Shown piece after piece: positions 24,535-52,000 of a stretch of DNA of 64,000 nucleotides (its first letter is position 1; each line of letters begins with the position of its first letter). Under the pieces are notes generated by a model. That model saw nothing but the letters and a program-made list of their open reading frames with translations. It was not told where the DNA came from and did not search any database. The stretch spans positions 1-64,000 of the forward strand of contig JAGNLA010000006.1 in assembly GCA_017999835.1 (NCBI GenBank). The letters are read 5' to 3'. A program made the translations under genes and the position numbers. This stretch comes from Caldisericia bacterium. Lineage in GTDB: Bacteria; Caldisericota; Caldisericia; JAAYUI01.

Positions 24535-27478
<2,944 letters not shown>

Positions 27479-27553: not shown

Positions 27554-27674
<121 letters not shown>

Positions 27675-27748: not shown

Positions 27749-29016
27749 ATGAAAACACTACGCTTTATAGATCTTTTTGCTGGATTAGGTGGCACAAGAA
27801 TCGGTTTTGAAAATGCTTGCAAGAATAACATGTTTAACTATGAATGTGTCTTTAGTAGTGAAATAAAACCATATGCAGTTAAAGTTTATAAAGAGAACTT
27901 TAATGAATCTTCATATTGTGATATAACTAAGGTTAATTCTAAGGATATTCCAAATTTTGATTATTTATTGGCAGGATTCCCATGCCAATCATTTAGCAGC
28001 GCAGGTTTAAAACAAGGCTTTAATGATGTAAGAGGTAATCTTTTTTTGATATAATAAGAATATTAAAAGATAAGTCACCGAGAGGATTTCTACTTGAGAA
28101 TGTTGATGCTCTTTTGGTACATGATAAAGGAAAAACATTTAATGTAATTAAAGAAAATCTTGTTAACTTAGGTTATGACGTTGTTTATTCTATATATAAC
28201 TCAAAAGACTTTGGAATACCACAAAACAGAAAACGTTTATATATCTGGGGTACAAAAAATAAAAATTCTAGATTCGAAATTATTAAAAAAGAGAAAAAGG
28301 TTATTAATGATATATTAGAAGATAATATTGAAAATGATAAGTCTGCTTTTATAGACTATTTGTTAAAAATGTACCCTATCGATTTTTTAATCGGAAAATC
28401 AATAAAAGACAAACGTGGTGGACACACCAATATTCATAGTTGGGATTTAAATTTAAAAGGTGAAACAACAACTGAACAAAAACGATTGTTGAATATGTTA
28501 CTAAAAAAAAGAAGATTGAAAAAATGGGCAATTAATAAAGGTATTAATTGGATGGATGGTATGCCATTAACATATAACGAAATAAGTACTTTTTATTATT
28601 CAGAAAACCTACTATCTATTCTTAATGATTTAACTAATAAAGGATATTTAAAATATGAGCACCCTAAGGAGTTAATAACTGTAAATGGAATAAAAAAAAG
28701 AGTTTATGCAAAAGATAAAGAGAAAGGTTATAATATTGTAGCTGGAAAATTATCCTTTCCAATTGCTCGAATACTTGATCCATTTGATATTTGTCCAACA
28801 TTAGTGGCAACAGAAGTTGGAAAATATGTAATTCCAACCACCAATGGGTTAAGAAGATTTACAATTAGAGAAGGGTTAAGATTGGCAGGATTTCCAGATT
28901 CATATAAATTGGATTTTTTATCATACGATGAGGCCTTTGATTTATTAGGAAATACAATTACTCCAATTGTAGTAGAAAGCATATTAGATAAGGTAATAAA
29001 AGATGAATGCAACTGA
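27749..29016 (+). pseudogene. DNA (cytosine-5) methyltransferase, frameshifted at a T7 homopolymer
   Basis: Motif I DLFAGLGGTRIGF and motif IV GFPCQSFS lie in frame 1 (27749-28054). ENV (RGFLLENVDALL) and QNRKRLYIWG lie in another frame that continues to 29016. One extra T in the T7 run at 28041-28047 would restore RGNLFFDIIRILKD... Confidence 0.85.
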
Positions 29017-29656
29017 AATAAAAAATTTATTAGAATCTACGGTATTATTTAATAAAGGTAGTATAGAATTTACTTTAGCGAATATAAAAACGATTATAGG
29101 GGATATAAATATAGTTGGTAATGTAATCCAAGATTGGTTGAAAGAGTTCTTTAATAAAAATTCTATTTATTATCGAATTCCTTCAAACACACAAGAATTT
29201 CCAGATTTTTTATTAAATACAGATAGCGACAAGTTGGATTTATTAGAAGTAAAATGTTTTACTAAAAGTCCTAATTTTGATATTGCAAACTTTTCAGCTT
29301 ATTGCAGATCATTAATTTGTAATGCATATAGATTAAATTCTGATTATTTAATATTTGAATATTCTCAATGTGATAATAAAATGATTGAAATTCAAAATAT
29401 TTGGTTAAAAAAAGTTTGGGAAATATGTGGATCTTCAGAAAGAGCACCTATAAACTTGCGATGGAAACAAAACCAGATATACAATATTAGACCTATAAGA
29501 TGGTTTTCAGATAAGAACAAAAATAAGCCTTTTAAATCTAGATTAGAATTTATAAATGCACTCGAATCTGTCTTGAAGCAAGATTCACATTACCAAAAAA
29601 ATTGGAAAAGAATGGTCATTGATAATTACTACAGCGAAACAGGCCAAGAGTTATAA
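29003..29656 (+). CDS. Putative type II restriction endonuclease (PD-(D/E)xK)
   Basis: It overlaps the MTase by 14 bp. It contains FPDFLL...DLLEVKCF (PD...ExK), has very low GC, and has no other homology clues. Confidence 0.55.
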   Translation: MNATEIKNLLESTVLFNKGSIEFTLANIKTIIGDINIVGNVIQDWLKEFFNKNSIYYRIPSNTQEFPDFLLNTDSDKLDLLEVKCFTKSPNFDIANFSAYCRSLICNAYRLNSDYLIFEYSQCDNKMIEIQNIWLKKVWEICGSSERAPINLRWKQNQIYNIRPIRWFSDKNKNKPFKSRLEFINALESVLKQDSHYQKNWKRMVIDNYYSETGQEL

Positions 29657-29801: not shown

Positions 29802-30143
29802 TTAGATACTAAACACCTGCTTTATCTTCGCCTCGAGCATCTGCTTTGGCACGGCACCGATGAGTGTGTCGACTCTCTTGCCGCCGTCAAAGAAAATCAG
29901 GCTTGGGATCGAGGTCACGCCGTTTGCGCTGGCTGCTCTCTGCTGCTCGTCCACGTTGATCTTGCCAAATGTCACCTTGTCGCCCATCGTGCTGGCAAGC
30001 TCCTCAAAAATCGGGGCAATCATCCTGCACGGTCCGCACCAGGGAGCCCAGAAATCCACAACAACCTTTTTGCCAGACTTCACTGCTGCGTCGAAGTCGT
30101 CATCTGTCATGTGCACTACGCTCATCATATCCTCCAATTGCAT
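29802..30143 (-). CDS. trxA: Thioredoxin
   Basis: WAPWCGPC active site and a length of 113 aa. Confidence 0.92.
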
Positions 30144-30304
30144 CTTTCAGGGATAATGCTTATCCTGAAAATGTTTTTTCGTTCTTGACATAAATTTTAG
30201 TCAAGCCATTGGCACATGCAAGTACCCAGCTGTTAAGTTTGTCAAGTTTGTATAAAGCTTTGATGCCATTGACAAAAATAACGCCTTGGGTGGCTGCCGG
30301 AAGG

Positions 30305-30910: not shown

Positions 30911-32428
30911 TTGGAAAGTTTTGCGGCAGCGGCAGTTGTAGTTGCCTTGGGAATTCTGCCGTTTGTTGCGCCAAGGAATAAAAATACTGTCAGAGATGTT
31001 ACTATGTTTGTTGCGGCCAGACGGAAACCGTTGCTGACCAACAGTGACGCAGAAACAGCGAAAAGGTTTGAAATATCCTTTGATTCGACAAGCAGTCTTG
31101 CCTATGTATCAAACCCACTTGATGGCACGGTGATGAGGTTTGACGAAAATGGTCAATATTTCTACAACACAAAACTATGCAAGACTTTTATTTTGAACGA
31201 TTGTCCACCTGTAACATGGAGTGACCTAAATGGATATGTAAAAAAGAATAACTTTATAGATATCGATTACATAACCGATTCAATAAATCACAACGTTTTT
31301 GTGCCAAACGAAGGCTACATGTTTGCCAACCCGAAAGAAGCCACGCTTTTTGAACCGGTCCAGACGGCTGTCTTTGAGGATGCCAAGAACTGGCGGGAGT
31401 ATGTGATTGATAGAGCCGGCAATAAGCTCCTGAGTTTTGCCCATTTTGAAAGCAAAGAAAAATGTGATAGATATTCAAAAGTTTTGTGGTCTGTCCCTAA
31501 AAATAAAATGATGGGTAATGCACCAATTGGAGAAGACAACTACAGTTTCTCAGGTCCATCAGGTGTGTGCGTAGATGGAGTCGGCAATGTTTATGTGGCT
31601 GACACCGGTAACGACAGGATAATGAAGTACAGCTCCAAGGGCGAGTTCCAGAGTGTTTTCCAGCCAGGATTTGACAAACCCAGGGCAGTGGCCGTAAATG
31701 CCTATGGGAGCAGCATTTTTGTATGCGATTCAAACAATAAGAGGGTTGTGGCAATTGATACAAAGACAAAAAAGACAATCCTGACTGTCACCAATGCAAA
31801 ATTTGCCAATCCTGATGCAATCTGCCTTGATGCCCAAGGGGCAATCTGGGTAGGCGATTCGGTCTCAAACACGCTTTTCAAATTTTCAGGAACAAAGACC
31901 AAAAAACCCGGAGTTCCGGTTTTTGCTGTCAACGATGTCCTGACAAGCAAGAAATTCCCCAGGACAGTTCTTGAAATGGAGCTTATGAGGTACTCCTGCA
32001 AAAGAAACGAACAAACTGTAAAAATCAGACCCTATGCGCAGTATAAAAACAAGATTCCGTGTGTACCTATAGAATTTGTCTTTGACAACCTAATTAAAGA
32101 TGAGTCCAGGGGCGGCCTCGAAGGTTTCTCTTGTACCTTCGACGTAAACACAAAATGCCTGACAGTAAATGTTCCAGAAATCCAAGTCGGTGAAGGCAAG
32201 ACACTTGAAAAAAGAACAGTGTCCCTGTGCGTCGATTGTGACATGGCCACTGTCAATGGCAAAGACGTTTTGCTTTCAGGCAAGGTGACGATAATTGGTG
32301 GATCTGTTTTTGCCCCGGCCGTTGATCTGACGAAGCTCTTTGGGGTTGAGGTGTCTTTCAAGGAACCAAAAACTGAGCCGGTAACGCGTCGTCTTTCCAT
32401 GACGCTGGTTTTTCCTCCGATAAAATAG
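30911..32428 (+). CDS. NHL-repeat protein with C-terminal Cu-amine-oxidase-N1-like domain (paralog 1)
   Basis: TTG start after a GAGGAGG RBS. NHL repeats (GVCVDGVGNVYVADTGNDRIMKY, IFVCDSNNKRVVAID, IWVGDSVSNTLFKF). The C-terminus (IRPYAQYKNKIPCVPIEFVFDNL...GGSVFAPAVDLTKLFGVEV) is stalk-like. Confidence 0.7.
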   Translation: MESFAAAAVVVALGILPFVAPRNKNTVRDVTMFVAARRKPLLTNSDAETAKRFEISFDSTSSLAYVSNPLDGTVMRFDENGQYFYNTKLCKTFILNDCPPVTWSDLNGYVKKNNFIDIDYITDSINHNVFVPNEGYMFANPKEATLFEPVQTAVFEDAKNWREYVIDRAGNKLLSFAHFESKEKCDRYSKVLWSVPKNKMMGNAPIGEDNYSFSGPSGVCVDGVGNVYVADTGNDRIMKYSSKGEFQSVFQPGFDKPRAVAVNAYGSSIFVCDSNNKRVVAIDTKTKKTILTVTNAKFANPDAICLDAQGAIWVGDSVSNTLFKFSGTKTKKPGVPVFAVNDVLTSKKFPRTVLEMELMRYSCKRNEQTVKIRPYAQYKNKIPCVPIEFVFDNLIKDESRGGLEGFSCTFDVNTKCLTVNVPEIQVGEGKTLEKRTVSLCVDCDMATVNGKDVLLSGKVTIIGGSVFAPAVDLTKLFGVEVSFKEPKTEPVTRRLSMTLVFPPIK

Positions 32429-32678
32429 CAATCCAACAATCATAGCCACGACGTAGCGTTGTAGTTCCTCGATTTTGATTGCCATGTTGTTTTTTTGATT
32501 TCATAAAAATTAAGGAAGAAAAATCAAAACATTGTGTAACTTTATAATGATGATGGATTAGTGGCGTCTGCATAACCAACGGTTTTGGTTCAGATTTTAA
32601 CAAAACACCTTGCTGGTTTCGTTGATTTTAACAGATGTTAAATTATCCTGAAACGTAACCCACCAAGGAGGTGAGTCA

Positions 32679-34253
32679 ATGAAGAGATTTTTGAAAGTGA
32701 CACTGCTAGTAGCCCTTGCAACCGTGCTTGGACTTGGAACAATTGCCATCCCGAACAACAAAACAAACGCCGAAGACGTGGAGATTTTTGGTGTGGCAGC
32801 CAACAGCTTTGGATATTACATCCTCGTGGCAAATCCAAAGACAAACACAGTCCAGAAATATGACCTTAACGGCAATTTCCTCAACGACTTCATCAAATGG
32901 TTCTCCCCACAGGAACTTGATGGCCCAGACGATCCAGTTGGCGCATGCCCAACATGGAAGTATGAAGGCCTCATCGCCGTCTCAATCTGCCGTATCACTG
33001 ACATGACAGCCGTCACTGACTATAAGCTGAGAAAAGTCTTCACCATCAACCCAAACGTCACACCTCACCACCCAATTGGCGACCCGTCAAAGAATGAACT
33101 CGAACTCCCATGGCACGCCTCGGAAACAGAAGTCTCAGACGACATCGGAAACTACGTCATCGACATGGTTGGCAACAAATATGTCAGATATGACCCGCCA
33201 GCAATTAATTTCGACAAATCCGCTGTTGAGTGCGAGGTTTATGCAAAGCCAAGATATTCAGTTCCAGCAGGATACATCAACAAACCAGCCCCGGCAGGCA
33301 CAGAGCAGGGACAGTTCAGCTCACCGGAAGGCATCGGCGTTGACAGACGTGGATTCATTCTTGTAGCAGACACTGGCAACAACCGCATCCAGAAGTTCAG
33401 AAGAGACGGCTCATTCTTTGCCGAATTCAAGGCAGACTTCAACAAGCCAGTTTACGTTATTCCTGACTTCAACGATGACTCGCCAAACAGATACTACATT
33501 GCAGACCAGGGCAACCACAGAATTGCAGTCTTTGACGAGAGAAACTTAAAGCTTGTCACTGAGATAAAGCCGACCAACGCAGATGGAACGCCACTTTTCG
33601 ATAAGATCGTCGCCGTCGCCATCGACATGGATTATAACATCTGGGTGGCAGATGTTGGAACAATGTGCCTTTACAAGCTCTCATCAATCGACTCGAAAGA
33701 GCCGGGCAAACTTATGCTCAAGATATGCAATGTTCTTGACACACCACCAATCTACACACACGTCTCAAGAATCGAACTCAAGAAGTACTCAGCAAGAGTT
33801 GATGAGTCAACCGTCAAAATCAGACCGTACGCCCAGATAGTCGGTGGCAGAACGATGGTTCCGCTCCGCTGGATTGCTGACAATGCTCTCTCCAACAAGA
33901 CAAAGAAGTTTGGTCCTATTTATAATACAACCGTTGAATGGGATGCAAAGACAAGATGCGCAACATTCACAATGCCTGAAATCAAGTTCAGTGACAAGCT
34001 GACATACCCAAAGAAGGTCGTAAAGGTTTGCATAGGAAACCAGACAGCCGAAGTCAATGGTCAGCCGGTCAAGATTGATGCCCCGCCGGTAATCATTGAC
34101 GGTTCAACGTTCGTTCCGCTTCGTTTCATTGCCGAGGCATTCGGTGCAGAAGTTAGGTACAAAGAGCCAAAGACTCAGCCGGTCACAAAGAACGGAGAAT
34201 GCATGATCATCATGCCGTCTACCGAAAAAGTGAAGGCAGCTTACGGAAGATAA
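32679..34253 (+). CDS. NHL-repeat protein with C-terminal Cu-amine-oxidase-N1-like domain (paralog 2)
   Basis: Signal peptide, then NHL repeats (GIGVDRRGFILVADTGNNRIQKF, YYIADQGNHRIAVFD, IWVADVGTMCLYKL). The C-terminus (IRPYAQIVGGRTMVPLRWIADNAL...DGSTFVPLRFIAEAFGAEV) is stalk-like. Confidence 0.8.
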   Translation: MKRFLKVTLLVALATVLGLGTIAIPNNKTNAEDVEIFGVAANSFGYYILVANPKTNTVQKYDLNGNFLNDFIKWFSPQELDGPDDPVGACPTWKYEGLIAVSICRITDMTAVTDYKLRKVFTINPNVTPHHPIGDPSKNELELPWHASETEVSDDIGNYVIDMVGNKYVRYDPPAINFDKSAVECEVYAKPRYSVPAGYINKPAPAGTEQGQFSSPEGIGVDRRGFILVADTGNNRIQKFRRDGSFFAEFKADFNKPVYVIPDFNDDSPNRYYIADQGNHRIAVFDERNLKLVTEIKPTNADGTPLFDKIVAVAIDMDYNIWVADVGTMCLYKLSSIDSKEPGKLMLKICNVLDTPPIYTHVSRIELKKYSARVDESTVKIRPYAQIVGGRTMVPLRWIADNALSNKTKKFGPIYNTTVEWDAKTRCATFTMPEIKFSDKLTYPKKVVKVCIGNQTAEVNGQPVKIDAPPVIIDGSTFVPLRFIAEAFGAEVRYKEPKTQPVTKNGECMIIMPSTEKVKAAYGR

Positions 34254-36563: not shown

Positions 36564-36611
36564 CTTGAACTAAAGCCATTGGATGGTAGAATTGTTCCTG
36601 TTACAAGGAGG

Positions 36612-37913
36612 ATGCAGGTGGATTATCTAATCATCGGCAGTGGCGGTAGAGAACATGCGCTCTGTCACGCTGTGGCAAAAACCGACAAGGCTTTCGTGGC
36701 GCCAGGGAACCCTGGAATGACCGATGTTGCCGAAACCGTGAAACTTGGCTCGGACTTCCAGTCGGTTGCAGATTTTGTAGGTGAGAAATCGATAAAAACA
36801 GTCATCATTGGCCCTGAAAATCCACTTTGTGCTGGTATGTCCGATTTTTTGAGGGATAAGGGAATCAATGTCTTTGGCCCATCAAAAAAAGGCGCCATGC
36901 TCGAAGGATCAAAAGTCTACGCCAAGGATTTCATGAAGCGGTACAACATCCCGACTGCCCAGTCCCAAACCTTTGACAATGCAAAGGAAGCGGTTGAATT
37001 TGTCAGAAAACATGATTTTCCAGTGGTCATAAAGGTCGATGGTTTGGCTGCCGGAAAAGGGGTTCATATTGCAGAGGATCTGCGTGAAGCAGAAATTGCC
37101 ATCAACGCCATCCTTTCAGAAAATCAGTTCGGAGAGGCAGGCAGAGCCGTAGTCATCGAGGAGTTTTTGGTTGGCAGGGAACTGTCAATGCTGGTGCTGT
37201 TTGACAACAATACCTTTGTGCCTCTGACTCCTTCAAGGGATCACAAACAGCTTGAAGACGGCAACAAAGGGCCAATGACCGGTGGCATGGGCGCATTCAC
37301 GCCTGTTCCAGACCTGGACAGCCTGACTTACAACCGAATAATTGCTGAAGTCGTCAAACCGTCAACTGAAGGCATAAACAAGGAAGGCAGCCTGTACCGT
37401 GGTGTTCTTTACTGTGGACTGATGCTCACAAAATCCGGCCCCAAGGTTCTTGAGTACAACTGTCGTTTTGGTGATCCCGAAGCAGAAGTCGTCATCCCAA
37501 TGATAAAAACTCCGTTTTCAGAGATTGCCGACGCAGTGGCCGAAGGTCAGCTTTCAAAAATAAATGTTGAATTTAGTAAAGGCTTTGCAGCCTGTGTCGT
37601 GCTTGCTTCGCAAGGCTATCCGGCAAAACCTGTGACAGGCATCAAAATTGAAGGCATGGATCAGGCAAGACAATTGCCAAACTCTATTCTTTTTGCAGCA
37701 GGAGTTGGCAAGTCAGGCGATGATTTTGTCACCTCAGGCGGTCGAGTTCTGACATGTACAGGCATGGGCTCAACTTTGCGCATGGCTCTTGGCAGGGCTT
37801 ATGCAATGACCAGGGTTGCAAAATTCCAGGGCATGCAGATGCGCGGCGACATCGGTGGAAGATACGCAAGAGGCAGGACGACTATCCTGTCGCTTAGAAG
37901 AAACCAGAAATAA
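36612..37913 (+). CDS. purD: Phosphoribosylamine--glycine ligase
   Basis: MQVDYLIIGSGGREHALCHAV N-terminus and an ATP-grasp core. An AGGAGG RBS sits upstream of 36612. The ORF-track start at 36579 is probably too early. Confidence 0.9.
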   Translation: MQVDYLIIGSGGREHALCHAVAKTDKAFVAPGNPGMTDVAETVKLGSDFQSVADFVGEKSIKTVIIGPENPLCAGMSDFLRDKGINVFGPSKKGAMLEGSKVYAKDFMKRYNIPTAQSQTFDNAKEAVEFVRKHDFPVVIKVDGLAAGKGVHIAEDLREAEIAINAILSENQFGEAGRAVVIEEFLVGRELSMLVLFDNNTFVPLTPSRDHKQLEDGNKGPMTGGMGAFTPVPDLDSLTYNRIIAEVVKPSTEGINKEGSLYRGVLYCGLMLTKSGPKVLEYNCRFGDPEAEVVIPMIKTPFSEIADAVAEGQLSKINVEFSKGFAACVVLASQGYPAKPVTGIKIEGMDQARQLPNSILFAAGVGKSGDDFVTSGGRVLTCTGMGSTLRMALGRAYAMTRVAKFQGMQMRGDIGGRYARGRTTILSLRRNQK

Positions 37914-37923
37914 GGAGAAAAAA

Positions 37924-38409
37924 ATGGAAAACATTCAGGTTTGCATAATACTTGGCTCAAAGTCTGATCTTGACGCTTGCCAAAAAGCCAATGACGTGTT
38001 TGATAAACTGGGCGTCTCTTACGAAGTCGTCATCTCCTCAGCTCATAGAACACCGGACAGAACGGCTGAAATTGCCAAAGCCCTCGAAGGCAGGGGCGTA
38101 AAAGCTGTCATTTGCATGGCTGGCTACGCTGCCCATCTTCCAGGTGTTGTGGCTGCCTACACAAAACTGCCGGTCATCGCCGTCCCGCTTGCAGGTTCGC
38201 CGCTTAACGGCCTTGACGCGCTCTATGCCCAGCAGATGCCAGCAGGCGTTCCGGTTGCCTGCATGACCATTGGCAACGCTGGCGCTACAAACGCTGCACT
38301 GTTTTGCGCAAGGATGTTTGCCACAACCGACACCCAGGTGAACAAAAAACTTGCCGACTACATCGAAGACATGAAGCAAAAGGTTATCGAAAGCTCTTTA
38401 CAAAAATAA
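37924..38409 (+). CDS. purE: N5-carboxyaminoimidazole ribonucleotide mutase
   Basis: MENIQVCIILGSKSDL...SAHRTPD...AGxAAHLPGVVAA signature. It starts 10 nt after the purD stop. Confidence 0.9.
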   Translation: MENIQVCIILGSKSDLDACQKANDVFDKLGVSYEVVISSAHRTPDRTAEIAKALEGRGVKAVICMAGYAAHLPGVVAAYTKLPVIAVPLAGSPLNGLDALYAQQMPAGVPVACMTIGNAGATNAALFCARMFATTDTQVNKKLADYIEDMKQKVIESSLQK

Positions 38410-38449
38410 ATCCCATTTAAACCAAACCCTTTGTTTAAAATTTAAAGCC

Positions 38450-39280
38450 GTGGTTTTGGTTGAACTTTTGTCAATAGGAGCTACACTCCTCTTGACAAAA
38501 GTTGATAAACAAGGAGTGCTCAAAGTGCCAAAGTTTGTTATTGTACCGGAATTGTTATCGTACCCAATTGAGATTCTCGACGTGCCCCACAGGGTCATGA
38601 TCAGGCTCAAACAAAAAGACATCCGCACACTTGAGCAGCTTTCCCAGATGTCTGAGGAAGACCTCCTTTCCATCTATCATTTTGGCAGAAAGTCTCTCGA
38701 CGACATAACAAGAAGACTCGAACTGATAAACGAATGCGCCAGAAAAAAAGGCGGACCACCGTCCGAACTGCTCGAGTGTATGAGGCTCAGGCTTTCAGGC
38801 ACAAACGGCATGATCGAGCAAATAGTCAGCTCTGTTGCTGACAGCGAAGTCGAAGAAAAGTCCATTTCGTACTTCCTAAGTGTCATCCCAACCCGTTCGG
38901 CGTTTGTTCTTGTCGAGAGACTGGGATTACGCAGGCAGGGCAGGCGAACGCTCCAGGAGCTTGCCGACATGATGAACCTCACCCGCGAAAGGGTGCGCCA
39001 ACTTCAGAACCGCTCCATGGAATTGCTCATGGACGCCGTCGAAGAAGCCCGGATACTCGAGTTTTGGGACAGAATCCTCTCCGAGGCCGCACTCGACCAG
39101 CCGACAGGCGAGCAGGCGTTCCTCGAACACATCGCAAGGTCAGGCTTTATTGGCAAGTCCACGCCAGCCGGTTTTGTCATCATCGCCACGCATCTTATCA
39201 AAGGCACCGACATTCCGGTACTGCTCAAAGCCTCCCGCGATGGAAGACTCTACAGATTCTGGGTTAGAAGGAAGAAGTAA
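38450..39280 (+). CDS. Chimeric regulator: RNAP alpha-CTD-like HhH domain plus sigma70 region-4-like HTH
   Basis: MIRLKQKDIRTLEQLSQMSEEDLLSIYHFGRKSLDDITRRLE fits the alpha-CTD pattern (L.R..N.L......DL......DLL.I.N.G.KSL.EI). GRRTLQELADMMNLTRERVRQLQNRSMELL fits sigma70 region 4.2. Confidence 0.55.
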   Translation: MVLVELLSIGATLLLTKVDKQGVLKVPKFVIVPELLSYPIEILDVPHRVMIRLKQKDIRTLEQLSQMSEEDLLSIYHFGRKSLDDITRRLELINECARKKGGPPSELLECMRLRLSGTNGMIEQIVSSVADSEVEEKSISYFLSVIPTRSAFVLVERLGLRRQGRRTLQELADMMNLTRERVRQLQNRSMELLMDAVEEARILEFWDRILSEAALDQPTGEQAFLEHIARSGFIGKSTPAGFVIIATHLIKGTDIPVLLKASRDGRLYRFWVRRKK

Positions 39281-39308: not shown

Positions 39309-39636
39309 TTAAAAATTTGCTACATGTTTATTCGGAAGCTTGTTAAACATTTCTTTTGCTTTATTGTATCCTTTTATACCCGTAGCGAGGTAGACATCTT
39401 CTCTAAACATTTTTGGGTCATCTCTCAAATCGATAAGGTCTACAATTTTTTTTGTATTTCTATCTTCAATATACAAAATATAGAAGAAACCAGTATCAAT
39501 TAAGTATTCATTGTAATTCTCGCTGGAAATATGTTCTCCTCTGCCAATGTTATCTGCGCAAACAATACATTCACTCAAACCGATAGTTTTAATTGTACCA
39601 CTATGCTTAATTTTTATTGATCCAATTATCATTTGA
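39309..39636 (-). CDS. Small AT-rich hypothetical protein (~108 aa)
   Basis: Internal Met (MIIGSIK...) preceded by a GGAGG RBS. It has low GC and contains a CIVC pair. Confidence 0.4.
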
Positions 39637-39660
39637 CCTCCCTTTCTTTTATTGCGAAAA

Positions 39661-39685
39661 TAAAGATAAACTAGTTTTATCTTTA
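39661..39685 (-). terminator. Perfect 10-bp inverted repeat (terminator or operator)
   Basis: TAAAGATAAActagtTTTATCTTTA. On the minus strand it is followed by TTTT. It lies 33 nt after the MFS stop and 25 nt before the small ORF start. Confidence 0.45.
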
Positions 39686-39717
39686 TAAGATAAGAATATA
39701 GTTGAAAAGTTACAAAT

Positions 39718-40968
39718 TTAATGTGCTTCTTTTTTCCGTTCATGTTTTGGCATGACTATGAAATAAAAAGTCGAAGCGACCAGGTAGGTCATGCCGGTCA
39801 TGACAAAACTGATCCAGTGCCTGCCGTCCTCAAGCAGCTGGCCGCCGATGCGCGTTCCTGTAGAATTGAGCACGTTCCAGCCGACGGTGATAAATGAGGA
39901 AACTGTCGATAACTCTGACGGCTGGCACACACCCATCCAAAAGCTGCTCCAGACAGGGCCGGTCATGTTCATCAGCGCGTTTCTGATGGCAAAGCCGATG
40001 GCTGCAACATAAAAGTTAGGCGCAAACAGCGTCAGCAACAGGAATGGGATCGAGAGGTACTGGCAATACAGCACAGTTCTGAGGTTGCCGATTTTTTTGG
40101 CAACAATTGGGGAGAGGTACATACCAAAGAAATACGGGAATTTTGCAATCGAAGCCAACGTTCCCCACTGGTCGGCGGTAGTGTTGTAAACCTTTTTGAA
40201 GTAGAGCGCAAACAGAGGAACGGTAAAACCGGCGCCAAAACCAATCAGGAACTGACCAAGCAGCAGTTTCCAGATGAAACCCCAGGACTTCACGTTGCCA
40301 AAAAGCCTTGCAAAAATGTTGCTTCCTTGAAGTTTTGGTCTCGGAACCGAAGCGACAGGTCTGAGTCTGAGGTAGAAACTCACTGACACAGCCGAGAAGC
40401 ACATGGCAATAGCTAGCGCGCACCTGTAGGCAAAGATGCTGCCTGGTTCAACATTAAAAATCTGTGACGCAAGCCAGGTCAGTTTACCGCCAATGAAGTT
40501 ACCAATGATGACTGCGCCTAGGTTTGACATTGCAATCATGGAGAGGATGTTGACGCGCTTGTCAGGATCGGAGCTTTCGACAAGCAGGGGGCCTTCAGAC
40601 AGGCTGTGGGCTGAGCTGGCGATGGTCGAAACAACCGTTGCAGTCATGATGACTGGTGAGAGCGGCAAGAAAACCTGGATGATAAACATTGGGAATGTGA
40701 TCAGCTGCGCAATAAATATTGACCACTTTCTGCCAATCTTGTCAACCAGCAACCCCATGGGGATTGAGACTATTCCGCCTGTCATCGTGCCAAGGGCAGC
40801 AAGAGTCGCAATAAATATAGGGGTGAAACCTTTTGCAAGCAGGAAATATGTGAAGTTTGCTTCGGTTATGCCACCTGAAAGCCCGGCAAAAAACGTTGCA
40901 AAAAGCACTATCCTTGTGTTAAAAGGCATCTGCCCCAGAAAAGCAAACGGTCTGAAGGATCGACTCAT
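39718..40968 (-). CDS. MFS transporter
   Basis: 12 predicted TM helices with two-domain MFS architecture. Confidence 0.8.
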   Translation of the reverse strand: MSRSFRPFAFLGQMPFNTRIVLFATFFAGLSGGITEANFTYFLLAKGFTPIFIATLAALGTMTGGIVSIPMGLLVDKIGRKWSIFIAQLITFPMFIIQVFLPLSPVIMTATVVSTIASSAHSLSEGPLLVESSDPDKRVNILSMIAMSNLGAVIIGNFIGGKLTWLASQIFNVEPGSIFAYRCALAIAMCFSAVSVSFYLRLRPVASVPRPKLQGSNIFARLFGNVKSWGFIWKLLLGQFLIGFGAGFTVPLFALYFKKVYNTTADQWGTLASIAKFPYFFGMYLSPIVAKKIGNLRTVLYCQYLSIPFLLLTLFAPNFYVAAIGFAIRNALMNMTGPVWSSFWMGVCQPSELSTVSSFITVGWNVLNSTGTRIGGQLLEDGRHWISFVMTGMTYLVASTFYFIVMPKHERKKEAH

Positions 40969-44107: not shown

Positions 44108-47100
44108 ATGTCAGGGGATTGGCATTTCTTCCCTGGAGGTGAAATGAGAAGAACTCTGGCCTTTCTGGCATTGGCGCTTGCTTTTTCAGGCATAAACCCA
44201 ACCTGGGCAGCATCGGGTGCAGACAACTCTTTTTTCAAGGTTCTTGCTCCTTCCCAGTCAGATGGTGACTGCACTCTCAGGCTGTCTTTCCAGATAGGGA
44301 AAACCTATTACTGGAAGAACGGTCAGATAAAGGGTGTGTCTCCGGACACGACTCCACCGATGGGTACGGCTCCGGAAATCAAGAAGGGCAAAACCTTCCT
44401 GATAATCCGCTACATCACCTCCGAGGTTGGCGCCACGCTACAATATTGGAAAAAAGGGACAGGCGAGGACAAAACAAAACAGGATCAGGTCAGAATTGTC
44501 ACAAAGCAGGGCAAGATTATTGACTTGTGGATTGGCAACCCGATGGCAAAAATAAACGGTGTTTCGGTTGCCATTGACCCAACCGATTCGACAGGGCAGA
44601 TTGCGCCATACATCAAAGGCAAAGGCTACACCATGCTTCCTCTGAGGTTTGTCGGTGACAACCTCGGTGCCAAAATAAACTGGATATCATCATCAACCAC
44701 AGCAGAACTCATCTTTACCGATGAAGAGTGTATAAAAAAATGCTGTGAGTTTTCTGTAGAACCGACAGAACAGATTTCTCTGTGTCCAGGTGAAGAAAAG
44801 TCGGTTAATCTGGCAGTTAAGAATATTTGCCAGGGCAAATCCATCACGCTATCTTTTACGCCAGGCTCAGGCATTTCAGCAATTGACAACAAGCAACTGA
44901 CCATTGAGGCAAACGGTACGGCAATCCTCAAAGCGACCGTGGCGATGCCAACGGTAATTTCTGAAAAAGCGGTTTTCACGCTCAAGGTTTCTTCCGATTG
45001 CGGAGTTGACAAAGAAGTCCAAATCGAGGCGCTTTTCAGGGAACAGCAGTGCCTCAACGAGTGCCAGTGGATCTGTGGTTGCATTGGCAAACTCACCCAG
45101 TCGCAGGATGTTGTGATCGTAGAGTTTTTTGAAGGATGCGCCAAAAAGAACCAAAGAAACTACATCGATACCGGCTCAACAAAAGACCTAATGCTTGGTC
45201 TAACTTTTGGCCAGTATGTTGACAAATATGGCTCAAACCCTTGCGCGCAGATTTGTGTCGATGAAGATGGTGACATCCAGGCTTGGAGGGCTTTCCCGGA
45301 CAGAACACCCTGCTGTCAGGATCACGTGTTTGCAAAACTCGACCTTGTGGACTGCAACTTGAAAATTGCGACAGGAGTCGATCCTGAAGGCACCAGATGG
45401 GTGTTTGACCTGTCGGAGTTTGAAGGCTGTGACGCTTTTGTCGCTGGCAAATGCTACGATTTTGCTGGAACTACCGTCAGGCCCAGGGGCATATCTTTTT
45501 CAGGTTCAGGTTTGCTCGAAGTCACGTCAGTTCAGGAAAAGGATTGTCAGGGAGCGGTTTTAACCGGCAAAGTGTCAATAATCCAGTGCAAGTCGAATCC
45601 GCCAATGGCCATGCTTGACACTGGAGATGGTAGTTCAGTCGAAGTTGAGTTGTTGTGCCAGAGCATGAGGAATGCCGATGGCAGGATTGTGGACTGTCAG
45701 GAAGTCAGGGATGGCGATTGTTTGACGTTTGTCGGATACCATTCTGGAGAACGTTTTGTCGCGTGCAAAGGCGACATACTTCCGTGCATGGCAACCTTCG
45801 AGACTTTCGATTGTCGACTCGACAGCGTGGTTTTACAAAACAATGCTTTGTTGTCAGTGAAAGCGTTTATTGGATGCAAAGGTGAGCAAACCACATTCAC
45901 ATCACCGAGAATGCTTGGCGATGACCTGTCTGAATACAGGAACCTGCTCTCATACTCGGTAACCGGCAACTACGCGAGGCTGACTGTAAACGACTCGACA
46001 ATCGTCCGCTGGAAACCATTGCTGACAGGATGCGGAACCTGCGTTGAGGAACAGCTATTTGAAATCATTGAAGCAAAAATAACTGAGAAATCGGATCAAA
46101 TGATTGTCATCGCTCGAAATCTGGACGGCAGGCTTGTAACCTTTGAAGCAGCCAAGGTTGACGAAGCAATGTTGACCTATAAAGGCACGGCCAAACTTTC
46201 CATCGATGGAAACGGCAAAATTTCAGGCTGGGAAAAACTTTCCGGTGGTTGCTGTTTTGCTGAACAGGGCAGGCTTGTACCATCGAAGAAATCGCTTGCT
46301 GTAAGCTCCATTTCTACTGAAATCGTTACCGGCGACCAGCTGAAGGTTTCAAATGAGTTGGGTGACATCGAGCTTCAACAACTCAAACTAAAACTTTCAA
46401 CACAGGTCAACCCATGGGACAGTTTCCAGCAATATGGAGCAAACTGGATTGGCTCCGACCTTTCAAGTTCGGGTGACACGATCGAATTCCTGCAGTCTTT
46501 CTGCGTACCAGAGTGTACGGCTGCCAGGCTTAAAATACTGAATACTTCAACCACGCAAATTTTCCTTGATGAGGGCAAGACTCCGATGGCAACAGCCGAA
46601 GGAATTGCCCACCTTTCAGATATCTTTTTTACTGTGCCTGCTGGCAGCCACAAGCTTAGATTTGTCCAGAAAAAATCTGCATTTTCTGGATTGATGTTTG
46701 TTCTGACAGGTCAACCTTCCAAAGAGTGCAAAACTTCTAGTTACCAAATCTCCTTTGGTACAGACAGAACGCTTGAAGGCGCCTGTGCTGGGCAAAAGAA
46801 AAAATATGCCTTGCTCCTTTCAAACACTGGCGAAGAAACAAAAACTTTCTCTATAACCCCGGTCAGCGTTGGTCTGGTCATCAACCCCTCAACGGTCAAA
46901 ATCCCAGCTGGCGAACAGGAACTGGTGCAGGTTACGGTTTTGATGCCGGAAAACCCTGAAAATTCAGCTTCTGTAACATTCAGTTTCTATCTTCAGGTTG
47001 ACGGCACGCAACAATCGATGATCGATTTTTCAATTCCGTATGGACAGTGTGATGATTGTTCCCTAAAAACCGACAACACGTTGATAATTCTGCCTGAAAT

Positions 47101-48679
47101 GTGCCCGGATGATTCATCCAAAATAGAGATAAACCTGAAAAACTCATGCTCCAGGGAACTGACCTTAAAATCTGTGTCTGAGGACAAAATGCTCGAGTTG
47201 CCTGCAACAGAGATGATCCTTAAGGCTGATGATGCTCTTTCTTTCAATGTTATTTTCAAAATGCCGGCAAGAGGCGATTCAAAATTCCTCTTTGCCAGCT
47301 TTAGCTTGAAATCTGAAGATAAAACTGTCGTTTATTATGATGTTGTGGCGATGTTCAAAAACGATGAACAATGCTGCTGTGATTTTGGTGTTGAGCTTGT
47401 TACGAGGTTTGTTGCCGAACAAACCATGGAACCTGGCGAAACATTCACCTATGACTATCTGGTAAAAAACAAATGTTCGGGCAGAAAGCTGAGTTTCACA
47501 ATTTCAAAAGGCGACAACATTGTTTCAGTCTCCCCTGAAAGCTTTATTGTCGATGCTGGCAAATCCGTGCCTATGCAGGTGAAGGCGCTTATGCCAGAAA
47601 AAAAAGGCGAGTATGCCCCTTTCAGTTTTGCTGTTGCATGCGATTGCGGAAAAAAAGCTAATATCAGCTTCACAGTAAAATACAAGCAGCAGGCTGTCTG
47701 CTGTGATTATGAGGTTGGATTCACCCAGGACATTCCTCAACCGTTGATGCTTGAACCAGATACGCAGTATGTTTTTGGTATGGGCGTTAAAAACAAGTGC
47801 AAAGAAGTCACCATTTCAGCAACTGTTATCGGTGGAGATTATGTTCAGCAGGTTGAACCAGGGAAACTCATTGTTGGCCCAGGACAAATTGCCGGATTCA
47901 GACTTTTCGTCAAAATGCCATCATGCAAACAGGGCGAGATCGTAACCTTCCGGTTCAGGGTCATTGTTGATGGATGCGACGAGAAAACCTATGAAATACC
48001 TGCTGCCTGTGGAACACAGATGGCAAACTGTTGTGATTATGACATTTCCGATGTTGACGGTCAGTTGAAAAACCTGAAAATTTGCCCCGGAGAATCCAAA
48101 ACCATCAAGCTGACCCTGGTCAACAAATGTCAGGATCGTTTGCTAACCGGCTCAATAAAGAACGGTGATGGAATCAGCGTAGATCCGCCTAATTTTACCA
48201 TCCAGGCCGGGAAGTCAATTTATATCTATATCACAGTTACCATGCCACAGAATGCCACAATTGGCAGTGCCTACACATTCGCATTTCTGGTGATGATTCC
48301 GGGGTGCACTAACAGAAAATATTCGTTTGAAGTGATATGTACAAGTTGTGGTAACGAACCTGAAGGGTGCTGTGATTTTACCTTGAATCTGATTTCCAAT
48401 CCTCCTTCATGTGTCACACCTGGGAAATCGTTTGAAATGACTTTTGAACTGTGCAATTTGTGTTCAAAAAGCATGCAATTTTCGGTTTCCGGGACAGGCG
48501 TCAATACGGGTGTGTTGGCCGTAGGGGCAAACACGTGCACCAGATTTAACGTTTTGTTTTATGTTCCACAGAATGTTTCGAATGTCTATACAATCAAGAT
48601 GAGCGTGTTGATGACGTCTCCAACGGAATGCGTAGGGAAAGGCAAACAGATTGAACTGCCGTTGAAGGTTTGCAATTGA
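44108..48679 (+). CDS. Giant secreted Cys-rich repeat protein (1523 aa) with N-terminal Cu-amine-oxidase-N1-like domain
   Basis: Signal peptide. N-terminal stalk-like domain (YYWKNGQIKG...FLIIRYITSEVGATL...YTMLPLRFVGDNLGAKINW). Then at least 9 modules of ~110 aa that start with CCEF/CCDF/CCDY and carry conserved internal Cys (..LCPGE..NLAVKNICQG..). Confidence 0.85.
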   Translation: MSGDWHFFPGGEMRRTLAFLALALAFSGINPTWAASGADNSFFKVLAPSQSDGDCTLRLSFQIGKTYYWKNGQIKGVSPDTTPPMGTAPEIKKGKTFLIIRYITSEVGATLQYWKKGTGEDKTKQDQVRIVTKQGKIIDLWIGNPMAKINGVSVAIDPTDSTGQIAPYIKGKGYTMLPLRFVGDNLGAKINWISSSTTAELIFTDEECIKKCCEFSVEPTEQISLCPGEEKSVNLAVKNICQGKSITLSFTPGSGISAIDNKQLTIEANGTAILKATVAMPTVISEKAVFTLKVSSDCGVDKEVQIEALFREQQCLNECQWICGCIGKLTQSQDVVIVEFFEGCAKKNQRNYIDTGSTKDLMLGLTFGQYVDKYGSNPCAQICVDEDGDIQAWRAFPDRTPCCQDHVFAKLDLVDCNLKIATGVDPEGTRWVFDLSEFEGCDAFVAGKCYDFAGTTVRPRGISFSGSGLLEVTSVQEKDCQGAVLTGKVSIIQCKSNPPMAMLDTGDGSSVEVELLCQSMRNADGRIVDCQEVRDGDCLTFVGYHSGERFVACKGDILPCMATFETFDCRLDSVVLQNNALLSVKAFIGCKGEQTTFTSPRMLGDDLSEYRNLLSYSVTGNYARLTVNDSTIVRWKPLLTGCGTCVEEQLFEIIEAKITEKSDQMIVIARNLDGRLVTFEAAKVDEAMLTYKGTAKLSIDGNGKISGWEKLSGGCCFAEQGRLVPSKKSLAVSSISTEIVTGDQLKVSNELGDIELQQLKLKLSTQVNPWDSFQQYGANWIGSDLSSSGDTIEFLQSFCVPECTAARLKILNTSTTQIFLDEGKTPMATAEGIAHLSDIFFTVPAGSHKLRFVQKKSAFSGLMFVLTGQPSKECKTSSYQISFGTDRTLEGACAGQKKKYALLLSNTGEETKTFSITPVSVGLVINPSTVKIPAGEQELVQVTVLMPENPENSASVTFSFYLQVDGTQQSMIDFSIPYGQCDDCSLKTDNTLIILPEMCPDDSSKIEINLKNSCSRELTLKSVSEDKMLELPATEMILKADDALSFNVIFKMPARGDSKFLFASFSLKSEDKTVVYYDVVAMFKNDEQCCCDFGVELVTRFVAEQTMEPGETFTYDYLVKNKCSGRKLSFTISKGDNIVSVSPESFIVDAGKSVPMQVKALMPEKKGEYAPFSFAVACDCGKKANISFTVKYKQQAVCCDYEVGFTQDIPQPLMLEPDTQYVFGMGVKNKCKEVTISATVIGGDYVQQVEPGKLIVGPGQIAGFRLFVKMPSCKQGEIVTFRFRVIVDGCDEKTYEIPAACGTQMANCCDYDISDVDGQLKNLKICPGESKTIKLTLVNKCQDRLLTGSIKNGDGISVDPPNFTIQAGKSIYIYITVTMPQNATIGSAYTFAFLVMIPGCTNRKYSFEVICTSCGNEPEGCCDFTLNLISNPPSCVTPGKSFEMTFELCNLCSKSMQFSVSGTGVNTGVLAVGANTCTRFNVLFYVPQNVSNVYTIKMSVLMTSPTECVGKGKQIELPLKVCN

Positions 48680-48803
48680 AAATATTTTCGCCAATTTTGC
48701 GCCAATGTTTGTAAATTGTAAACAATAATAATAGGAAATTGCAAATTAATATGAATAAATATGATTTATTAACTGTATAAAATAATGAATAAATTGAAAA
48801 ATA

Positions 48804-48834
48804 AATCATCTTTTCTTAAAAATAAAAGATGATT
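48804..48834 (+). other. 11-bp perfect hairpin in a very AT-rich spacer
   Basis: AAATCATCTTTT-cttaaaaat-AAAAGATGATT within a 350-bp intergenic stretch of ~22% GC. Confidence 0.4.
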
Positions 48835-49029
48835 GGATTATCATGTTTTTGAGAAAAGTTGAATAGGGAGCTGAATAATTCAGGAATATCAATGGTTATC
48901 AAATCATAAATATTATTTTGTGTAGTACTGTTGTTTTTGGCTGAAGAATAATTCTATTATCTTTAATTATCGGTTCCAAACATCGCTTCAATGCAATAAA
49001 ATCTTATCGAATTTCTTTGGAGGTGATGC

Positions 49030-52000
49030 ATGAGGCGATTATTTATCAAAATTGCGCTGGTGGCCATGATTGTTGGATTGTTTGCCCCAATCATGCCGCA
49101 AGTTATGGCTGCTCCGTCAACAATCACGTTGACAGCAACCCCTGGCTGCGGATATGTGTTGCTCAAATGGACAGACACCGATAGGGCTTATCAATTCGAA
49201 CCACAACTTGTGCTTGATGACGGTTCGACATATCCAATTGAGGATTTTCCACTTGTCGGGAAATATGAATACAAACACGAAGGTTTGACTGAAGGCAAGG
49301 AATATTGCTATGTAGTCGTCAGTCGAGACAAGGATGCCAACAAGATTGCCGAGAGCAACAAAGCATGCGCAACACCGGTGTGCAAGGAAGATTGCACCTG
49401 GAAATGCGGATGCTTCAAAGAATTGGTTGCAACCGCTGCAAACGTTGTAAAATTCTCTGAAGGCTGCAATGACAGCGTTACACCATCGTTGCTTAGTTTT
49501 CCACCGACCCTTGTTGACCAGCTTCATAGTTGGACTATCGAGCAGTACCTCAAGATTTGCAAGGAAAAGGGCGTCAACCCATGCGTTCGGGTGTGCGTTG
49601 GCCCAAACAACAACATTGTTGCCTGGAAAGCTGACATCGAGGGCAACGATTGCTGCAAGCCGCAGACTCCAACGCCTGTCATTGAATGCTTCTGCATAAA
49701 ACTCACTGAAATCGATTGTAACCAGGTCTTTGCTCGTGGTGTGGCAAGTGACGGCGCCCCATGGTGCATAGTTGGGTTAACCACCGCCCAGTGCAAGGAT
49801 TTGAAAGTCGGACTGTGCTACAAGGTTTGTGGCGAAGAAATCATTCCTGGTCCAACTGAAAAGTGGTCATGCAGAAGGATAAAAATCGGCACGATAACAC
49901 AGGCGCAATGCGATTGCAAATGCCTGTGCGTGAAAGTGTCAAAAATCCAGTGTCAGACTGCAGCAACCAATAACCCATTCCCGATTTTCTATGGCACTGA
50001 TGAAAACGGCAACGCCGTGACAGCTGTCATCCAGGACGCCACAATCACTGATCTTTCCGGCAATGTTGTAAAGTGTGAAGACATCAAACCAGAAACCTGC
50101 TGGAACCTTTGTGGGTTCTGGAGAGAAGCAGCTACTGGCGCTGCGCCTGTGTTTGTGGTGTTGCAGGCAGAGCAGGTTGATTGCGCCAAGTGCGTCAAGC
50201 AGTGCTGCGAATTCAGGATCAAACCAAAAGTAAACCTGCCTGAATGCGTAAACCCTGGGCAACAGTTCTCTTTCTATTTTGATCTGGAAAGCTATTGTGA
50301 CTCAAGAATAACTTTCGACATGGTAATAGTGAACAACACGCCTGGCCTGACTGCTACCGTGTCTCCGACATCTGTCACTACTCCTGCTTATGTACCGCCA
50401 AATCCTGGAGTGGCCGGAGTGTATGTGACCGGAACAGTGCCAACCGCATGTGAAAAGTTGGAGTTGATTTTGCAGGCATGGCCAAAAGACAGCAAGTGCA
50501 ATATGGTTGAGTACAAGATTTCCATACCATGCTGCAACACCTGCTGCAAGTATGATGTTAAACTAAAAGGCACGTTGCCTGAATGTGTCAAGCCAGGCGA
50601 AAAATATGTTCTTACATATGAAATATACAACTATTGCGCAAATCCGATAAACTTCAGCATGGCTTACACCATCCAATCAGGTGGTGTGTCACCGATTGTT
50701 GACCCGATGATGCTGACAGTCCCAGCAGGAACGCTTGCCCCAGGCGTTGCAACCTTTACAGCCACAGTCACGGCTCCAACCAATTGCACTGGAGAGATAG
50801 CCTTTACGCTCATTGTTAACCCCAACAACATGCCAAACTGTCCAAAGAAGGAGATACCTGTAAAGCTCAAATGCTGTGGCACATGTTGCCAGTTTGAGAT
50901 AAAAAAACTTACAGAAATTCCAACCTGTCTGGATGCTGGAAAAAAAGTAACAGTAAGATACAGGCTATATAACACCTGCAATCCTTGCACGCCAATACCT
51001 TATATCATCGTGCCAAGCACAAACGTTACGGTTAATTCGGCAACCAGTGGCACCATCCCATGCGGCAACACAAACTATGTTGATATCAGCGTGACTTTCA
51101 CCATGCCAAAGCCCTGCAAGGAAACAACATTCATGTTTGTCATCTCTGCCTGTGGAAAACGTACTCCTGTTCAGGTCAAGATTCCTTGCTGCAATCCTTG
51201 CTGCAAGCTTGAAGTCAAACGCATGACCGACTTGCCAAAGTGTCTTGATGCTGGCCAGAAGACAACTATCCGTTACAGAATCTACAACCTCTGCGATCCT
51301 TGCAAACCAATTCCAATCAAGATTTATCCGGGAACTGGAGTAACCATAAATACCCCTTCAGGTGGGGCAGGAACGGTTCCATGCAAACCGAATTACCTTG
51401 ACGTAAGCGTTACTTTCACAATGCCAAAGCCTTGTAAGGACACCGTCTTCCAGTTCAAGGTTGTTGCATGTGACAAAACCACTCTTGTTGAAGCCAAAAT
51501 CCCTTGCTGCACAGTGACGTGCTGCGACTACACGGTCAAGATGACGTCGAATTTGCCAGAGTGTCTCAAACTTGGCCAAAAGTACGATCTGAAATTCGAA
51601 ATCTGTAATAAATGTTCGACAGCGACAACTCTTGCCTTGAGCAGATGCCCTGGAACAACAGGGCTGACTGTTTCCCCGGCAACGCTCAACCTTGGCCCGT
51701 CTGGATCGAAATCAGCATGCATGACTGTGACAGTTACCATCTGGGCTGACGAAAACACATGCAAACAAAACAATGGTGTTATTGAGTTCTGTCTGATGAC
51801 CAAGGTTGTAACTCCAAAAGATTGTGGTGATGGCAGCATAAAATATACAAAGTTCAGAGCAATGTGCTGCGACTATGAAAGGAAGAACTGCTGCCAGTTT
51901 GAAATCACGCCACTCAACTCGCCACCGTCAGAGCTTGCGCCAGGTGAGACATTCATGGTCAAATATCAGGTGTCAAACAAGGGAGACAGGGCCACATGTG

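Follow-up and report, generated by a model that had tools for sequence, protein, structure and literature searches.

Several heat-shock repressors follow a common logic in which the regulator gene lies with a chaperone gene and inverted repeats cover the −35 and −10 promoter elements; HspR does so at the dnaK operon through the operator HAIR, RheA at hsp18, and HrcA through the operator CIRCE. Here we describe a gene, referred to as X, in a 64,000-nucleotide stretch of DNA from a Caldisericia bacterium (assembly GCA_017999835.1, contig JAGNLA010000006.1, positions 1 to 64,000; hereafter the window), whose similarity to these systems is one of analogy only. The DNA-binding domains of HspR, RheA and HrcA are of the MerR, TetR-like and HrcA types, whereas X is assembled from the unrelated sigma-70 region 4 and the C-terminal domain (alpha-CTD) carried by the alpha subunit in RNA polymerase (RNAP), and the half-site of its putative operator, unlike those of the three described repressors, is the −35 consensus itself. 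X is probably a transcription regulator specific to the Caldisericia, and is best described as a helix-turn-helix (HTH) regulator variant built from the promoter-recognition modules of RNAP. We favor, at a little under an even chance, the reading that X is an autoregulatory DNA-binding protein, probably a repressor, that competes with RNAP holoenzyme for −35-like DNA. All functional assignments for X are computational, and those going beyond the domain calls are inferred.

Gene X and its domains

The longest open reading frame (ORF) at this locus spans positions 38450–39280 on the forward strand, and a preliminary description of the region, made from the sequence alone, had taken it as the gene. 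The frame exists, but the start was placed 75 nt too early. The coding sequence almost certainly begins with GTG at 38525 and runs to 39280 (+), encoding 251 residues plus the stop codon, because a ribosome-binding site (AAGGAG, 38511–38516) lies 8 nt before this GTG, the homologues (n = 12) all begin MPKF(V/I)I, and the 25 upstream codons are unconserved and contain an in-frame stop in the closest relatives (L153). In comparisons with two close orthologues (82% and 77% nucleotide identity), 105 of 138 and 120 of 173 nucleotide differences fall at third codon positions, and judged by this bias X is a real gene under purifying selection. Residue numbers given below as ORF residues are counted from 38450, and all others from the GTG at 38525.

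Domain searches support the proposal that X is a stand-alone protein combining an alpha-CTD with sigma-70 region 4. Both domains exceed the curated Pfam thresholds, RNA_pol_A_CTD (PF03118) at ORF residues 34–91 (53.3 bits against a cutoff of 23.8, E 2.3e-14) and Sigma70_r4 (PF04545) at ORF residues 158–191 (31 bits against 24.1, E 1.8e-7). The NCBIfam models for RpoS, RpoD and sigma-32 align with ORF residues ~127–205, corresponding to regions 4.1 and 4.2, and the rpoA models with ORF residues 32–94; all score far under the cutoffs set for whole proteins, which is to be expected of domains in isolation. A PDB sequence search recovered the Bacillus subtilis alpha-CTD (1z3e and 3ihq, E ~2e-6) together with many sigma-4 chains of SigA, RpoS and Taq sigma, and the fold model agrees with both assignments. 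By these matches X is a conserved 251-residue Caldisericia protein carrying copies of the two promoter-reading modules of RNAP, followed by a third domain.

The alpha-CTD-type helix-hairpin-helix domain occupies residues 8–70 (38546–38734, +), and has the alpha-CTD fold as well as the Pfam match. Using our own mapping onto an alignment of the B. subtilis and Escherichia coli alpha subunits, R23 (equivalent to E. coli alpha R265), G54, K56 and S57 (G296, K298 and S299) and D19 (E261) are invariant in the family. The hairpin turn given in the preliminary description as G-K-SL-EI is present (FGRKSLDDI), but reads G-x-K-S-L with DI and not EI after it. A helical linker at residues 71–109 (38735–38851, +) follows, with helices predicted in this part of the model at residues 55–75, 80–90 and 92–104 at lower confidence (predicted local distance difference test, pLDDT, 61–79). 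Two linker cysteines, C71 (38735–38737) and C85 (38777–38779), are invariant in the family alignment; a redox or metal role for the pair is speculative.

Sigma-70 region 4, including both 4.1 and 4.2, spans residues 110–170 (38852–39034, +), with the recognition helix T153-R-E-R-V-R-Q159 at 38981–39001; the string TLQELADMMNLTRERVRQLQNRSMELL, previously picked out as resembling region 4.2, is found at ORF residues 167–193. An extended stretch of region 4 is invariant in the family (R124...V128..E131-R132-x-G134...R141-T-L-Q...L152-T-R-E-R-V-R-Q-L-Q161), and the hydrophobic core positions of 4.1 and 4.2 are conserved. As established for E. coli sigma-70 and for the Taq sigma-A/−35 complex, the helix residues R584, E585, R588 and Q589 read TTGACA. 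The PDB alignments pair LTRERVRQLQ of X with VTRERIRQIE of SigA, and by this pairing all four TTGACA-reading residues are retained in X, so that its HTH is predicted to read the same hexamer.

A third domain, at residues ~176–251 (39050–39277, +), escaped the preliminary description. It is conserved and specific to the family and, when modeled alone, folds confidently into a five-helix bundle (pLDDT 87.4). It has no match in Pfam or in the PDB sequence search, and is missing from all 150 other alpha-CTD/sigma-4 proteins that we retrieved.

The domain content of X rules it out both as a sigma factor and as an alpha subunit. The alpha-CTD begins at residue 8, is fused upstream of sigma-4, and is not accompanied by an alpha N-terminal assembly domain (TIGR02027 scores 35.9 bits, the cutoff being 227.8). 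The predicted absence of sigma regions 2 and 3 is borne out, with no Sigma70_r2 or Sigma70_r3 match in Pfam even at E 10, and TIGR02937 aligns only through its region-4 end (23.9 bits against 42.9). X shares regions 4.1 and 4.2 with group 1 and 2 sigma factors (RpoD, SigA and RpoS, which give its best matches in the PDB and NCBIfam), with TRERVRQ identical at the −35-contacting positions, but is without regions 1.2, 2 and 3 and the beta-prime coiled-coil binding, −10 melting and initiation that these provide. With sigma regions 2 and 3 missing, and the N-terminal domain of alpha as well, X can neither act as a sigma factor nor join core RNAP as alpha. The LuxR/GerE proteins, the WhiA C-terminal domain and UPF0122/YlxM are distant structural relatives with recognition helices of their own, whereas X is a bona fide Sigma70_r4 protein by sequence with a primary-sigma helix; GerE (PF00196) gives no Pfam match in X at E values up to 10, and any likeness to LuxR/GerE is at the level of the fold.

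A candidate operator at the X promoter

A gene for the small heat-shock protein (sHSP) Hsp20 lies directly upstream of X, on the same strand and 21–106 bp away, in 10 of 13 lineages (L002, L003-5, L006, L007, L087, L088/89, L090, L091, L155 and L156), and the genes flanking this hsp20-X pair vary, with purE, a polysaccharide deacetylase gene and an aminotransferase gene among them. The neighboring of regulator and chaperone genes typical of autoregulated heat-shock repressors is thus seen in most lineages but not in the subclade of the window, which comprises the window, L001 and L153/154 (84–94% protein identity); here hsp20 is gone and purE is the upstream neighbor. The box-bearing promoter described below nonetheless remains directly before X in this subclade, from which hsp20 was lost.

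CTTGACA(AA) boxes are present in both orientations at the promoters of hsp20-X or of X alone. All 11 promoters examined contain CTTGACA on the bottom strand, where it cannot serve as a −35 element for the hsp20 and X genes, and most hold further TTGACAAA boxes. They overlap both the −35 and −10 elements as well as the spacer and start region. In the promoters that we designate clade A, a −35-like TTGA(A/C/T)(A/C/T) is followed by TTTTGTCAAG(A/T)GG and then by a −10-like hexamer; the first two of these elements form a 17–18-bp palindrome in which the TTGACA half-sites are 9–10 bp apart, center to center, or about one helical turn. The palindrome is perfect over 18 bp in L091 (CTTGACAAATTTGTCAAG, half-site centers 10 bp apart), and its counterparts are CTTGAAATTTTTGTCAAG in L003, CTTGATTTTTTTGTCAAG in L087, CTTGAAATTTTGTCAAG in L088, and GTTGAACTTTTGTCAAG in both L001 and L153. 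The orthologous sequence in the window, at 38459–38475, is the imperfect palindrome GTTGAACTTTTGTCAAT, in which a top-strand −35-like TTGAAC lies opposite a bottom-strand TTGACAAAA. Clade B promoters (L002, L006, L007 and L155) are organized around a core TGTCAAGGTCTTGACAAAA, additional TTGACAAA boxes lie upstream and immediately past the −10, and in L006 three of its six TTGACAA heptamers fall inside 60 bp.

Promoters of the window's subclade have a second box, CTTGACAAA, after the −10. In the window, a candidate operator is formed by an inverted repeat at 38463–38503, with 18-nt arms (38463–38480 and 38486–38503) that are 94% complementary and separated by 5 nt. It is centered on the putative −10, TACACT (38482–38487), and its outer ends are two TTGACAAAA boxes, at 38467–38474 (−) and 38492–38499 (+). 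The outer boxes are retained in L001 and L153 although the inner arm sequence differs from that of the window, which favors protein-binding boxes over a hairpin, and only the right arm of the window repeat would be transcribed. Inverted repeats positioned over the promoter, as in the described heat-shock repressors, are thus represented by the 18-bp palindrome of L091 and the 18-nt-arm repeat of the window. The A/T-rich sequence from the purE stop codon to the X −35 contains a weaker inverted repeat (38417–38464), with abutting 24-nt arms that are 71% complementary; it may represent the region of the purE terminator, or else an UP-like element.

Proposed autorepression and alternative roles

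The suggestion that X is a promoter-DNA-binding transcription factor agrees with the reading favored by its primary-sigma −35-reading residues and by the clustering of −35-like boxes at its own promoter. Binding of X at this promoter is proposed because TTGACA is the predicted target of the HTH, the promoter is full of TTGACA boxes in both orientations, and the boxes stayed after hsp20 was lost; repression is proposed because the boxes overlap the promoter, where X would compete with region 4 of sigma-A. In such a scheme X, probably as a dimer or oligomer held together by its C-terminal domain, would bind the TTGACA boxes through the sigma-4 HTH while the alpha-CTD-like domain touches adjacent A/T tracts. 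Bound X would block the −35 and −10 from sigma-A holoenzyme, holding the sHSP operon in autorepression until its release by a stress signal. The signal might be heat, acting through heat lability of X, or oxidation, acting through the invariant cysteine pair, and Hsp20 may feed back on X. An sHSP operon arranged in this way, with the gene for its own repressor last, would resemble the chaperone operons of HspR and RheA. A broader proposal, in which the alpha-CTD and sigma region 4 were copied into a free-standing competitor of holoenzyme that reads the −35 hexamer with its flanking A/T and serves in Caldisericia as an sHSP heat or redox repressor of a previously undescribed type, with the module acting as the DNA-targeting device of the large alpha-CTD-sigma4-HARE-HTH superfamily prominent in the Patescibacteria, is possible but doubtful.

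Several observations weigh against autorepression by X. The contacts assigned to the two modules in the preliminary description, with the −35 box and with the UP element, fare unequally: the −35-reading residues are those of a primary sigma, but in the alpha-CTD two of the six positions of the 265 determinant (R265, N268, C269, G296, K298 and S299) are replaced, N268 by I, V or S and C269 by an invariant R, and UP-element-type binding is therefore not assured. The HspR operator HAIR, CTTGAGT-N7-ACTCAAG, is close to the X half-site, and a different repressor could own the sites. The top-strand boxes could be ordinary or tandem promoters, since TTGACA is the −35 consensus and TTGACAAA is over-represented across the window (19 matches against 7.4 expected). 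Loose TTGA-N7-13-TCAA inverted repeats show no enrichment across the window (30 against 25, 8 against 11, and 9 against 7 expected), and the case consequently rests on orthologous conservation rather than on window-wide statistics. The spacing and orientation of the boxes also depend on the clade, with convergent half-sites in clade A and divergent half-sites plus a 9-nt-spaced pair in clade B, which is awkward for one rigid dimer. A scan of metagenome contigs for CTTGAHWWWTTTGTCAAGWGG was uninformative and added no members to a putative regulon: none of its 61 matches is near an hsp20 or X homologue, and many belong to longer CCTCTTGAC...GTCAAGAGG hairpins on unrelated contigs.

A different role for X, in place of site-specific DNA binding, is that of an RNAP-associated or decoy factor, in which sigma-4 would dock on the beta-flap tip, or on an anti-sigma factor or activator, and the alpha-CTD would titrate factors whose normal contact is the alpha-CTD of RNAP, making X an anti-activator or a host 'sigma appropriation' factor. 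It is established that, within RNAP, regulators target the alpha-CTD and sigma-4 most often; the hydrophobic core of regions 4.1 and 4.2 is conserved in X, and larger relatives carry HARE-HTH, which in Gram-positive RNAP is the delta-subunit domain and hints at an RNAP-centered role for the superfamily. A pure decoy, however, does not need strict invariance of TRERVRQ and of the equivalents of R265, G296, K298 and S299, and would leave unexplained why TTGACA boxes cluster at the X promoter. In RNAP the alpha-CTD and sigma-4 contact one another through alpha D259 and E261 and sigma R603, and in a manual alignment this pair is only half retained in X. We consider a role of this kind unlikely.

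The TTGACA inverted repeats could instead be the operator of another heat-shock repressor, HspR- or MerR-type and acting at HAIR-like sites, with X merely co-regulated and having its own targets elsewhere. The half-site CTTGACA is near the HAIR half-site CTTGAGT, HspR controls hsp20 in Deinococcus-Thermus, and the boxes precede hsp20 in most lineages. The arms are nevertheless spaced by N4 in clade A and by N9 in L002 and L006, as against N7 in HAIR, a variation unlike the rigid sites of MerR-type proteins, and the boxes stayed with X once hsp20 was lost. No hspR-like gene adjoins any locus examined; the only MerR gene seen (L001 1218–1991), which is TipA-like, is 6 kb distant and has no counterpart in the window. 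Ownership of the boxes by a second repressor thus appears more doubtful still than a decoy role.

It is highly improbable that X is the sigma-4 half of a two-subunit sigma factor, lending −35 and UP recognition to a region-2 partner in the manner of B. subtilis SigO-RsoA or phage T4 gp55/gp33. X does have a complete region 4 with the −35 readers of a primary sigma and no region 2, but no region-2-only gene is adjacent to it in the window or in 13 related loci, where the neighbors are hsp20, purE and unrelated genes, and the only small sigma-like neighbor (L003 3744–4103) encodes region 4 and not region 2. This neighbor is a 119-residue protein with a weak Sigma70_r4 match, encoded on the reverse strand (3744–4103) ~4 kb upstream of hsp20-X in L003–L005, the P0008 lineage.

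A part in anti-phage defense, with X as a pared-down relative of PglW (type 2 BREX) or MzaA, is the least credible alternative and is largely refuted by context: the PADLOC MzaA model matches the sigma-4 part of X weakly (positions 593–677 of 683, E 9.6e-4) and larger alpha-CTD-sigma4 proteins match PglW, but the PglW model gives no match to X, which is without a kinase, nuclease, ATPase or STAND part, has no BREX or MZA genes nearby and no phage homologues that we could find, and keeps a stable chromosomal place by purD-purE-hsp20 across lineages.

If X is indeed an autorepressor, it would illustrate a simple route to a new regulator: the −35 reader of the polymerase itself is copied, and the duplicate shuts off promoters through recognition of that same hexamer. 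It would give a deep-branching and barely cultured phylum a named sHSP heat-shock regulator, and would offer, in 251 residues, a tractable way to approach the alpha-CTD-sigma4(-HARE-HTH) proteins, of which hundreds are uncharacterised, and the equivalent modules of the PglW and MzaA defense proteins. If it is not, X nonetheless represents a well-defined family, conserved and unannotated, whose C-terminal domain is novel.

Relatives of X and other features of the window

The compact X family comprises 12 clusters at 90% identity in a word-indexed search of 5.8 billion proteins; they are 48–94% identical, are 251–268 residues long, and all carry both Pfam domains. The named sources are all Caldisericia, one being a Caldisericota metagenome-assembled genome (MAG) and one a genome match titled 'MAG: Caldisericia bacterium'. 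An exhaustive hidden Markov model (HMM) search of 1.84 billion representatives, in which the family collapses to one 50%-identity representative, returned 403 representatives below 1e-10. The sole other close match to the family representative, and second best overall, was P0013 (292 residues), seemingly a scrambled form of the family from a short contig, which we excluded. A scan of genome contigs found only two full-length family loci (L006 and L007) and was dominated by ordinary sigma factors matching through LTRERVRQL; the Streptomyces and Gaiella matches that seemed to extend beyond region 4 are ordinary sigma genes. Phage records and viral contigs yielded no X-family member, only phage sigma-4 matches. 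One 175-kb viral contig (IMGVR_UViG_3300028048_000052; L192 3001–3447) matches X residues 20–161, which take in both modules, at 27% identity, and may encode a phage alpha-CTD/sigma-4 protein.

X is best viewed as the compact representative of a superfamily of alpha-CTD-sigma4 proteins that is large and uncharacterised. We scored domain order with our own domain HMMs (A for alpha-CTD, S for sigma-4) in the best 150 representatives and the family members, and found A-A-S in 69, A-A-A-S in 32 and A-S in 21, 14 of the last being the X family; [ST]RER[IV]RQ is retained in 108 of the 150 representatives. Pfam identifies one to three alpha-CTDs and Sigma70_r4, sometimes with HARE-HTH, in larger relatives of 436–1181 residues. 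The alpha-CTD(n)-sigma4(-HARE-HTH) architecture, as these searches depict it, is common, with hundreds of clusters, notably in the Patescibacteria. No publication that we found characterises a free-standing alpha-CTD/sigma-4 protein, in keeping with the preliminary description, but the architecture is not rare, and alpha-CTD before sigma-4 is the dominant order among the 150 best representatives.

The relatives have the same module order as X, as do PglW and MzaA, but differ from it in composition. They are 400–2200 residues long, usually have two or three alpha-CTD repeats, and often include HARE-HTH or enzymatic parts, whereas X has a single alpha-CTD, the cysteine pair and a C-terminal domain that the relatives lack. 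Relatives of P0145, the nearest example with a single alpha-CTD, are from Patescibacteria and are annotated only as hypothetical, as 'alpha C-terminal domain-containing' or as 'sigma factor-like HTH DNA-binding protein'. P0015, P0030 and P0165–P0235 combine alpha-CTD repeats, sigma-70 region 4 and HARE-HTH, three DNA-binding modules accessory to RNAP, in one chain; many proteins are of this kind, and they are frequent in Patescibacteria and unannotated. The PADLOC models for PglW (positions ~780–990) and MzaA (C-terminus) match the alpha-CTD/sigma-4 module in large proteins, and a 2026 comparative study notes that in PglW the HTH modules come after an alpha-CTD-like domain (PMC12839542).

In the window, purD (36579–37913) and purE (37921–38409) are upstream of X and the downstream genes are convergent; an MFS transporter gene and a SurA-like gene are also neighbors, and neither hsp20 nor rpoA is present within the 64 kb. 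A 144-residue ORF of no Pfam family (39309–39743, −) is convergent with X, is located in AT-rich sequence, and shares 26 nt with the end of the MFS transporter ORF; L001 has a 665-residue gene in its place, and this spot is therefore variable. In lineages with hsp20, the short hsp20-X spacer can form a stem-loop in L002 (1405–1470, folding z-score −4.7) and L090 (335–450, −3.2), and weaker ones in L087 (3160–3215) and L155 (4945–5004). Stem-loops between genes are a usual way of lowering expression of a distal regulatory gene, and those seen here may adjust the ratio of hsp20 to X, as processing sites or as partial terminators.

A thioredoxin gene elsewhere in the window (29802–30143, −) has CTTGACATAAATTTTAGTCAAG and two more TTGACAAA boxes, in opposite orientations, in its upstream region (30184–30276), and an inverted repeat, TCAGGATAAGCATTATCCCTGA, in its 5′ leader. 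The upstream boxes resemble those of the X promoter and could mark a second target of X; we fitted no convincing −35/−10 arrangement to them, and regard this as a lead only.

Farther from X, the window includes complete 23S (24552–27478) and 5S (27557–27673) rRNA genes, with no 16S rRNA or tRNA gene anywhere in the 64 kb, so that 16S is unlinked to 23S-5S at least within 24 kb upstream. Directly past the 5S gene is a low-GC island (28114–29656, GC 0.30 against ~0.45) in which a C-5 cytosine DNA methylase gene (28114–29016) overlaps one for an NgoBV-type restriction endonuclease (29003–29656); this is probably a horizontally acquired type II restriction-modification system. Three regions (4422–8495, 30911–34253 and 44108–52716) encode very large proteins of 505–1523 residues that combine Cu_amine_oxidN1 with beta-helix, NHL, fn3 or Ig-like domains. 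These are probably cell-surface proteins, and the Cu_amine_oxidN1 domain recurs in related Caldisericia loci.

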